A DNA stretch of 7,762 nt, taken from assembly GCA_042216335.1 (NCBI GenBank), contig JBDGTY010000045.1, forward strand, positions 1 to 7,762. The letters run 5' to 3'. This stretch comes from Candidatus Nanohalobium sp. Lineage in GTDB: Archaea; Nanohalarchaeota; Nanosalinia; Nanosalinales; Nanosalinaceae. Below, piece by piece: positions 3,005-3,512 of the stretch (position 1 is the first letter of the stretch; every line of letters begins with the position of its first letter). The translations under genes and the position numbers were made by a program. Below the pieces are notes generated by a model. That model did not search any database and was not told the DNA's origin. It worked only from the letters and a program-made list of their open reading frames with translations.

Positions 3005-3152
3005 GGGTTCGTGGTCTAGTTGGTTATGACACCGCCTTGACAGGGACTGGTTACGCTCAGGTCCATACGCAAGAAACCATGCTACGCATGGCTTGCAGCG
3101 GAATCAGCCCACAAATTGGCGGAGATCCCCGGTTCGAATCCGGGCGAACCCA
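3005..3152 (+). tRNA. trnV: tRNA-Val(GAC) with a 74-nt intron at canonical 37/38 (exons 3005-3042 and 3117-3152); CCA not encoded
   Basis: Acceptor GGGTTCG/CGAACCC with discriminator A3152; D-arm GTC..GAC; anticodon stem CCGCC(3032-3036)/GGCGG(3118-3122); loop TT-GAC-A|T; T-arm CCCGG-TTCGAAT-CCGGG. Confidence 0.95.
3043..3116 (+). other. tRNA-Val intron (74 nt) with a relaxed bulge-helix-bulge/loop junction; folds as a long hairpin
   Basis: TTG(3037-3039) pairs with CAA(3112-3114), with an A/A mismatch at the fourth helix position; 3' bulge AT|T. Basal stem GGG-A-CTGGTT/AATCAGCCC. Confidence 0.85.
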
Positions 3153-3330: not shown

Positions 3331-3512
3331 GGGAAAGTAGCTCAGTGGTTAGAGTGCTGCGCTCATAACAACCAAGTTGTGAGCGATGAGGGTTGCAGCC
3401 TTTTTCTGGAAAGGCTGCTTGAGAAGACATCGTGTCTTCGTGCCCGATGATTATTTAGGTTCCAGAACCGTGAGGTACGCAGTGGTCCCGGGTTCGAATC
3501 CCGGCTTTCCCA
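3331..3512 (+). tRNA. tRNA with CAT anticodon, most likely tRNA-Ile2(CAU) (elongator Met not excluded), with a 109-nt intron at 37/38 (exons 3331-3367 and 3477-3512); CCA not encoded
   Basis: Acceptor GGGAAAG/CTTTCCC with A3512; D-stem GCTC/GAGT; anticodon stem CTGCG/CGCAG; loop CT-CAT-A|A; T-arm CCGGG-TTCGAAT-CCCGG. The GGG start, G31-C39 pair and TGGTC variable loop resemble archaeal Ile2 rather than initiator Met (A1-U72) or elongator Met (usually starts GCC). Confidence 0.92.
3368..3476 (+). other. Intron of the CAT tRNA (109 nt), BHB-bounded, with internal hairpins and C/D-like boxes
   Basis: CTCA(3362-3365)/TGAG(3471-3474) form a 4-bp central helix with 3-nt bulges TA|A and GT|A. Internal hairpins at 3395-3403/3410-3418 and 3423-3429/3433-3439. 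Confidence 0.88.

Follow-up and report, generated by a model that had tools for sequence, protein, structure and literature searches.

The stretch of DNA analysed here (7,762 nt, hereafter the window) is contig 40 of the 1.02-Mb genome of the archaeon Candidatus Nanohalobium sp., assembled in 74 contigs and 96% complete. Its sequence is best matched in a salt lake metagenome, with four runs on record, all of them DNA. The window carries a tRNA-Met(cat) gene at 3331-3512, interrupted by a 109-nt intron after position 37 (ARAGORN with introns allowed, window alone), and the gene spliced in silico is called by the same program as a 73-nt tRNA-Met. This intron placement, together with the spliced call, puts C34 of the tRNA at 3364 and the intron at 3368-3476. 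Two elements of this intron are the subject of the present analysis, namely a segment antisense to the anticodon arm of the same tRNA and, next to it, a predicted kink-turn of the box C/D type (Table 1).

Table 1. Features of the tRNA-Met gene and of its intron, in window coordinates
Feature	Position	Strand	Basis
5' exon, tRNA-Met positions 1-37; anticodon CAU at 3364-3366, C34 = 3364	3331..3367	+	ARAGORN; exons kept in relatives
Target stretch CGCUCAUAAC, made of tRNA positions 30-37 and, after them, two intron bases mimicking A38 C39	3360..3369	+	Direct reading; guide-paired in minimum free energy fold
109-nt intron at the canonical 37/38 site	3368..3476	+	ARAGORN; orthologues with a C-starting intron fix the boundary
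Predicted guide GUUGUGAGCG (GTTGTGAGCG in DNA); G3381 (N+5) pairs with C34	3376..3385	+	Pairing kept in orthologues
D box variant AUGA, non-bulged kink-turn strand	3386..3389	+	Comparison of 40 sequences
C stem, 5' strand GGGU	3390..3393	+	Covariation; RNAalifold
Hairpin 1 within the C stem; loop carries UUCUGGAA (3404-3411)	3395..3418	+	Fold
Hairpin 2, GAAGACA-UCG-UGUCUUC (3423-3439), flanked by GA (3421-3422) and GU (3440-3441)	3421..3441	+	Fold
C stem, 3' strand GCCC	3442..3445	+	Covariation
Bulge GAU (3446-3448) and box C AUGAUUA (3447-3453)	3446..3453	+	Comparison of 40 sequences
Tail segment UUCCAGAA, complement of loop 3404-3411; includes the CAGA once taken as D'	3460..3467	+	Direct reading; comparison
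3' strand of the bulge-helix-bulge, with 3471-3474 paired to C32-A35 (3362-3365)	3470..3477	+	Direct reading; constrained fold
3' exon, tRNA-Met positions 38-73	3477..3512	+	ARAGORN

From 5' to 3', the intron would be organized as a linker, the guide, the D box AUGA, a C stem enclosing two hairpins, a bulge, the box C AUGAUUA and a tail, followed by the splice-site strand. Guide and splice-site strand stand at opposite ends of the intron, 5' and 3' respectively. The guide segment 3376-3385 pairs with 3360-3369 over 10 bp including one G.U (U36.G3379), and G3381, the fifth base before ATGA (3386-3389), faces C34 (3364), which is the N+5 register of box C/D guides. Both the complementarity and the position of G3381 had been proposed in a preliminary description of the locus, and they are confirmed here with a register conserved in 40/40 sequences. 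All strings of that description also lie where it placed them: GTTGTGAGCG at 3376-3385, ATGA at 3386-3389, GGGT at 3390-3393, GCCC at 3442-3445, CCGATGA at 3444-3450, a 12-nt spacer at 3451-3462, CAGA at 3463-3466 and GTGAGGT at 3470-3476.

The fold of the precursor with minimum free energy includes the guide helix (z = -4.1), the guide conformer reaching -72.1 kcal/mol and the splice-site conformer -67.3 kcal/mol, for an unconstrained minimum of -73.6 kcal/mol. The 10-nt target of the guide is still present in the spliced tRNA. Mononucleotide shuffles of the intron (n = 5000) give a run of at least 10 bp against 3360-3369 in 10 cases, while in 7 cases an NTGA of any kind is preceded, in the N+5 register, by 7 bp of antisense to positions 31-37. 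In one window alone, the guide arrangement is only moderately unlikely by chance; it is its conservation in 27/27 tRNA-Met and 13/13 tRNA-Trp genes that argues against a chance origin. Within the genome, antisense preceding NUGA and directed against the tRNA's own anticodon arm is carried by two of the 15 intron-containing tRNA candidates, those for Met and Trp.

In a kink-turn, a C stem is followed by a 3-nt bulge, by tandem G.A pairs and then by a U.U pair. In the window intron, the GGGU/GCCC stem closes across the two hairpins directly after AUGA, GA 3449-3450 stands opposite GA 3388-3389, U3451 opposite U3387, and U3452 pairs with A3386. The intron 3368-3476 is therefore supported as holding one predicted box C/D-type kink-turn beside the guide. 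In the gene, the D box comes 5' of box C, and the hairpins (3395-3439) close the stem, leaving no open terminal stem, so that the kink-turn appears inside out. That D precedes C had already been pointed out, as had the GGGT/GCCC pairing that brings ATGA beside the GATGA box, and this stem covaries. The C-like box earlier read as CCGATGA is indeed a box C, but its register is better given by AUGAUUA (3447-3453), while the reservation that the kink-turn lacked a clean 3-nt bulge can be dropped since GAU (3446-3448) supplies it.

Conservation of this layout was followed in the host's order, where the 182-nt precursor is matched in 35 of 41 genomes. For the 30 loci compared, the parser recovered an intron-containing tRNA(CAT) in 27, window included. 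In all 27, guide positions N2-N8 pair with tRNA positions 31-37 and a single base separates them from a D-like box, which places C34 at N+5. Two loci missed by the parser (L014 and L019, of which one has an unusual T loop and the other is truncated by a contig end) display the same module by eye, and the last one, L030, has no CAT tRNA. The same module is found in the tRNA-Trp gene of this genome (contig 53, 213-nt intron), with a guide, CUGGAGG, complementary to its own loop. It is present in 13/13 parsed tRNA-Trp genes, again with the guide CUGGAGG and C34 at N+5, and in one of them, L053, A31 replaces C31 and the facing guide base is U instead of G. The D box starts anywhere from intron nucleotide 14 to 46 in tRNA-Met and from 16 to 184 in tRNA-Trp, the internal register being constant. 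Thus, among the elements on which the preliminary description relied, the D-like box, the GA box and the covariation of the guide (between Met and Trp, and in L053) hold in the orthologues, while CAGA is not conserved as a box.

The kink-turn itself is equally regular among the 40 sequences. The D box is AUGA in 29, CUGA in 10 and CCGA in one, always directly followed by the stem, and the bulge is GAU in 35, AAU in four and UAU in one. U faces U in 39/40, and at D1:C6 an A-U pair (29), a C.C (10) or a C-G pair (one) is found. An open search for NNN-GA after a stem starting at the D box ranks the xAUGAU site first in 34/40 sequences and among the top three in 40/40. Over its first three positions, the stem is paired in 119 of 120 cells, a count that drops to 29-79 of 120 once the partner strand is shifted by 1-3; there are 16 distinct versions of the stem, and none of 2000 permutations reaches the observed pairing. 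RNAalifold, run on the 12 of the 40 sequences that have short hairpins, finds the stem unaided with six pairs, five of which show compensatory changes. When Met and Trp sequences are aligned together by MAFFT, it recovers the C stem and not the guide helix, because the anticodon arms of both tRNAs are aligned one column out of register; the guide pairing was counted by script instead of from the alignment.

Beyond the host's order, a pattern scan of public genomes returns at least 80 loci, the pattern itself forcing the N+5 register. Among the 80 matches listed, the parser recognized 37 as tRNA(CAT) genes whose intron has a guide and a D box, and in most of these the best stem closure after D is the xAUGAU site, which is not required by the pattern. 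The parsed records are mostly titled Nanohaloarchaea, Nanosalina, Nanohalobium, Nanoanaerosalina or Asbonarchaeum. By eye, 16 further listed loci include 11 with the design and five chance-like matches outside tRNA; the remaining 27, mostly with bacterial titles, are outside these counts. Among the 11 are loci from records titled as Woesearchaeota and as Aenigmatarchaeota, which have UUGA as D box. In Nanohaloarchaea as in other DPANN lineages, one conserved design would serve both tRNA-Met and tRNA-Trp. As a separate observation, a tRNA-Met gene with an intron of nanohaloarchaeal type is carried by L091 and L120, belonging to metagenome-assembled genomes titled Colwellia polaris and Magasanikbacteria, and these contigs are probably mis-binned. 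Six loci in Aenigmatarchaeota-titled and other archaeal records (L114, L118, L132, L084, L099 and L124) apparently combine the guide/kink-turn intron with an insertion in the T arm of tRNA-Met, which accounts for the failure of the parser on them. A literature search found no paper linking Nanohaloarchaea, tRNA introns and C/D guides.

Several known systems invite comparison. In the known tRNA-Trp intron guide, the boxes follow the order C...D with C'/D' in between. Stand-alone guides for 2'-O-methylated C34 (Cm34), such as the Pyrococcus small RNA (sRNA), the haloarchaeal sR-tMet and the human SNORD97/SCARNA97, target the same nucleotide of tRNA-Met as the window intron would, but they are separate, trans-acting genes with a bipartite architecture. 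According to excerpts of two reports, C34 of both tRNA-Trp and elongator tRNA-Met is a reported or predicted box C/D guide target in Pyrococcus and Haloferax (PMC7994747, PMC4033218). The same excerpts describe the euryarchaeal pre-tRNA-Trp guide (Pyrococcus sR50, Haloferax volcanii), which resembles the window intron in its 37/38 location, in aiming at its own C34 at N+5, in its use of L7Ae, Nop5 and fibrillarin, and in the mutual exclusion of guide and splice-site folds (PMC7994747, PMC4033218). It differs in being described as a complete guide that serves two targets, Cm34 and Um39 (2'-O-methylated U39), whereas the window intron displays one kink-turn, a D box 5' of box C and a hairpin-closed stem, and resides in tRNA-Met.

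Another close precedent comes from Nanoarchaeum equitans. As far as the excerpt of PMC3491384 goes (Randau 2012), the intron of its elongator tRNA-Met is a stable RNA of 66 nt in which box D matches the consensus, box C is a variant and a hairpin counts six GC pairs, and it was proposed as a C/D box sRNA; the excerpt gives no target for this intron and says nothing of D preceding C. Its layout is very likely the same as that of the window intron, judging from this partial description. Both belong to an elongator tRNA-Met of a DPANN archaeon; the window intron is longer, with two hairpins, a loop-tail pairing and AUGA as D box (PMC3491384). The design described here would thus join the tRNA-Trp intron guide and this single 2012 observation. 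The permuted and circular sRNA24 of N. equitans, as outlined in the same excerpt, also has D-type before C-type elements, but it holds four boxes whose order is restored only by the circle, whereas C'/D' is not conserved in the window intron (PMC3491384). Finally, the synthetic half-mer box C/D RNAs of Xue et al. 2010, as cited in PMC6239191, share with the window intron one kink-turn, one guide and a bound target; they are laboratory constructs, while the window design would be natural and tethered in cis to its substrate (PMC6239191).

The identity of the host tRNA bears on what a modified C34 could mean. A genome scan for CAT anticodon loops in tRNA context finds two genes only, one on contig 10 and one in the window. 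The former combines A1-U72 with a GGG/CCC anticodon stem, the marks of an archaeal initiator; the latter has G1-C72 and the anticodon stem CUGCG/CGCAG. A tRNA-Ile(UAU) with an intron of its own is encoded on contig 43 (13316-13445). It is matched in the five closed genomes of the host's family, with the UAU loop read in four of them, the stretch read in the fifth ending before the anticodon loop. No credible TiaS, the enzyme that would modify a tRNA-Ile2, was found: the Pfam domain TiaS_FLD is matched in 0/40 relatives, and in this genome it gives a single 23-bit match in a 189-aa acidic open reading frame (ORF) without any other TiaS domain. With only two CAT tRNAs, a tRNA-Ile(UAU) and no credible TiaS, the window gene is, on gene content, an elongator tRNA-Met and not the tRNA-Ile2 of the preliminary description, whose proposal of a Met-versus-Ile switch at C34 falls with it. 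AUA is then predicted to be read by tRNA-Ile(UAU) in this genome, and the host's order appears to do likewise. In N. equitans, AUA is reported to be decoded with a UAU anticodon as well.

Genes of this kind escape default tRNA finders, and for annotation, a CAT tRNA in these genomes is best assigned to elongator Met and the decoding of AUA to tRNA-Ile(UAU). ARAGORN at default settings calls no tRNA in the window; with introns allowed, its whole-genome run lists none on this contig, and the run on the window alone finds both tRNAs (Met and Val). In Rfam at E up to 1, the window yields only the tRNA-Val and a tmRNA-like T-arm fragment, with no small nucleolar RNA or sRNA family on the intron. 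More generally, the tRNA set of the genome is rich in introns, at least 15 genes having one, mostly of about 50 to more than 200 nt according to ARAGORN estimates, and several of these genes are missed by both default ARAGORN and the Rfam tRNA model.

The proteins of a box C/D particle are all encoded in this genome, namely L7Ae (93 bits), fibrillarin (224 aa, 246 bits) and, adjoining the latter, Nop5 (Nop domain at 174 bits; contig 58, 17725-18468, L148:1501-2244). The machinery supposed in the preliminary description is thus present for these three proteins, but Nop5 is shortened, and no credible TiaS was found, as said above. In sister families, Nop5 mostly counts 297-357 aa with a recognizable N-terminal domain. 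The introns with AUGA/AUGAUUA and those with CUGA/AUGAUC split along the same family line as the length of Nop5, and the change of the intron boxes and the shortening of Nop5 may be a single evolutionary event. As an observation apart, an acidic ORF (contig 58, 17275-17718, L148:1051-1494) ends a few bases before the start of Nop5 in 6/6 genomes. It encodes 146-186 aa without Pfam match, with repeated W/F-x-x-EE...L motifs. A Nop5 split in two via this upstream ORF (147 aa here) was considered and rejected, as there is no family match and the alignment looks, by eye, like helical W/F-x-x-EE repeats and unlike the N-terminal domain of Nop5.

On these grounds, the intron is best read as a predicted box C/D-type guide for the C34 of its own tRNA, using one inside-out kink-turn and methylating in cis, with a probability of about 0.7. 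In the mechanism that we infer, the guide of the nascent precursor would pair in cis with anticodon-arm positions 30-39, which is the thermodynamically preferred fold. Since the guide conformer is the more stable and the guide lies 5' of the splice-site strand, C34 would first be presented in the guide duplex. L7Ae would bind the kink-turn, and Nop5 with fibrillarin would add a methyl group to the 2'-OH of C34, which faces the fifth guide nucleotide upstream of the D box. The guide would next be displaced by GUGAG at the intron's 3' end as the bulge-helix-bulge forms, and the endonuclease would finally cut the intron out. Once excised, the intron, linear or circular, could also act in trans, because the spliced tRNA retains the 10-nt target. 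If so, the intron would define a minimal core for such a guide, made of the guide, the D box, a closed stem, a 3-nt bulge and GA.

Several points weigh against this reading. All orthologues are related to one another and, within each tRNA type, share an unchanging target loop, so that the covariation of guide and target rests on the contrast between Met and Trp and on one Trp variant. Archaeal consensus boxes are RUGAUGA for C and CUGA for D; here, D is AUGA, where other families keep the canonical CUGA, and box C has U (C in other families) in place of G, so that the consensus G6:C1 pair becomes U:A in the host's family (29 sequences) and C.C in others (10). A C'/D' motif is not conserved, which makes the guide one-sided, and to our knowledge no natural one-sided guide has been shown to be active in vivo. 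The Nop5 of this genome has 248 aa and aligns to residues 118-376 and 126-377 of solved Nop5 proteins of 388 and 379 aa, respectively; on this alignment, the N-terminal fibrillarin-binding domain is missing from it. Likewise, Nop5 frames span 248-284 aa in 25/25 genomes of the host's family. When searched at E up to 1 with a profile built on eight N-terminal domains from the order, neither this genome nor a closed one from its genus gives a match; two genomes that contributed to the profile do. Two single N-terminal domains and Pfam NOP5NT give nothing significant here either, archaeal controls for NOP5NT also staying below the cut-off. The missing domain lowers confidence in the methylation step. 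Moreover, hairpins flanked by GA are common in introns without a guide, and kink-turns may also serve folding or splicing.

These points lead to the alternative that survives best, an unlikely one nonetheless, in which the kink-turn and the antisense would form a folding or processing device bound by L7Ae, without methyl transfer. The anticodon loop would be held in the duplex, for instance to order folding, protect the loop or time splicing. The Nop5 of the host's family, devoid of the fibrillarin-binding domain, the off-consensus boxes lacking C'/D' and the hairpins flanked by GA beside the splice-site strand of many guide-less introns are all compatible with such a device. However, a simple clamp needs no exact gap of one nucleotide between antisense and D box, and the N+5 register is found in 40/40 sequences, constant in families with short and with full-length Nop5 alike. 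The arrangement is also restricted to the two tRNAs for which a guide-dependent Cm34 is described elsewhere, as far as the excerpts of PMC7994747 and PMC4033218 indicate, and fibrillarin is kept beside Nop5.

Were the intron to methylate C34 as favoured above, the shortened Nop5 would leave room for a bolder and rather doubtful proposal, that of a natural minimal methylation machine in Nanohaloarchaea, made of a single-kink cis guide within the tRNA-Met and tRNA-Trp introns and a Nop5 devoid of the domain that normally holds fibrillarin. Fibrillarin might then be recruited in an undescribed way. Alternatively, two precursors might pair on a Nop5 dimer and so imitate a two-sided guide, perhaps aided by the complementarity of UUCUGGAA and UUCCAGAA acting between molecules. 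The co-occurrence of one-sided guides and shortened Nop5 raises the question of a box C/D particle working with fewer parts.

Many tRNA introns contain a recurrent hairpin, GAAGAnC...GnUCUUC with GA on both sides, which often immediately precedes the splice-site strand. It occurs on contigs 41, 53(-), 58(-) and 74 and in some orthologues of the window intron, the 3' flank being GU in the window. This element could be a second kink-turn-like site or a three-way-junction site for a protein.

The preliminary description had instead presented the intron as a complete permuted box C/D RNA, functional only as a circle and methylating C34 of tRNA-Ile2 in competition with agmatinylation. This is very unlikely, even though D precedes C in the gene and every string that it invokes is present. 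Archaeal tRNA introns do circularize according to the excerpt of PMC7994747, and a circle-dependent permuted C/D sRNA is described for N. equitans in that of PMC3491384. However, neither of the two additional boxes withstands comparison. CAGA, taken as D', lies inside UUCCAGAA (3460-3467), whose 8 nt are exactly complementary to UUCUGGAA (3404-3411), part of the hairpin 1 loop. Loop and tail share a Watson-Crick match of 7-11 nt in 9 of 27 Met introns, a length attained by 0-13 of 300 shuffles; in L010, each strand occupies the place of the other. This match is found neither in the other 18 Met introns nor in the 13 Trp introns. The pairing UUCUGGAA/UUCCAGAA is thus, on this comparison, a covarying and lineage-specific loop-tail pairing and not a box.

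As for GTGAGGT, taken as C', it is the 3' strand of the bulge-helix-bulge at the splice site, whose bulges are U36-A37-A3368 and G3475-U3476-A3477 with the cut after 3476. This strand follows the anticodon, being GUGAG in Met and GGAG (GGAGAU end) in Trp. In some short Met introns, GUGA at the intron 3' end stands 10-12 nt past box C; it too is fixed by the anticodon, with GGAG in its place in Trp. No second guide or D' is conserved after box C, the tails beyond UUAAA sharing no antisense, and no second guide to position 39 was found in these tails. The shortest orthologous introns, of 42-65 nt, have no room for C'/D', and the 42-nt intron of L020 accommodates one kink-turn only.

Since the C'/D' motif is missing, circularization would have no box order to restore. 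Guide and C/D kink-turn are already contiguous in the linear precursor, with a stem closed by hairpins, so that the claim of a guide order arising only in the circle does not stand, and circularization would not be required. When the excised intron is folded, the C stem has a probability of 0.75-0.85 in the linear and of about 0.05 in the circular model, under an energy model that ignores kink-turns and proteins, and such folding gives no hint of the circle helping. The host tRNA further contradicts a competition with agmatinylation, as it is predicted to be an elongator tRNA-Met in a lineage where TiaS is matched in 0/40 relatives and tRNA-Ile(UAU) is present.

That the antisense merely reflects chance complementarity or a second, nested bulge-helix-bulge is the least probable of all, for while introns at 37/38 need one anticodon-complementary segment and a single window has a shuffling frequency of about 0.2%, the splice-site strand is a separate 3' segment (3471-3474), 3360-3369/3376-3385 form a continuous 10-bp helix without 3-nt bulges, contrary to the earlier view that a nested bulge-helix-bulge explained much of the complementarity, and the arrangement is found in 40/40 sequences.

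Searches of the whole genome for further guides of either architecture complete these data. A loose half-mer motif gives 101 matches versus 83-102 in shuffles, that is, no enrichment, and five other half-mer candidates bearing ATGATTA were discarded as coding-like by eye, with no target nearby. A strict C-D'-C'-D pattern has 0 matches in the genome and 0 in five shuffles and is uninformative.

Other modules recur in the tRNA introns of this genome. The tRNA-Val(GAC) gene, at 3005-3152 and 178 nt upstream of the tRNA-Met gene, has a long intron that opens with GGGACUGGUUACGCUCAGGUCCAUACGCAA. Near-identical modules stand at the start of the tRNA-Trp intron (contig 53) and of the intron in a contig-55 tRNA that has a TGT anticodon loop (Thr-TGT according to ARAGORN), and they are present in many relatives, which suggests that GGGACUGGUUACGCUCAGGUCCAUACGCAA may be a shared and possibly mobile intron module. 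A second one, RUGAUGAU-CAAACUUUCAGAAGUUUG, is located at the 3' end of the tRNA-Trp intron (contig 53, about 22232-22257) and, in inverse orientation, in a tRNA intron of contig 46 (from 85; Thr-CGT according to ARAGORN). It also directly adjoins tRNA-Leu(UAA) on contig 32 (from 4093), and 25-nt identical matches to it are found in relatives.

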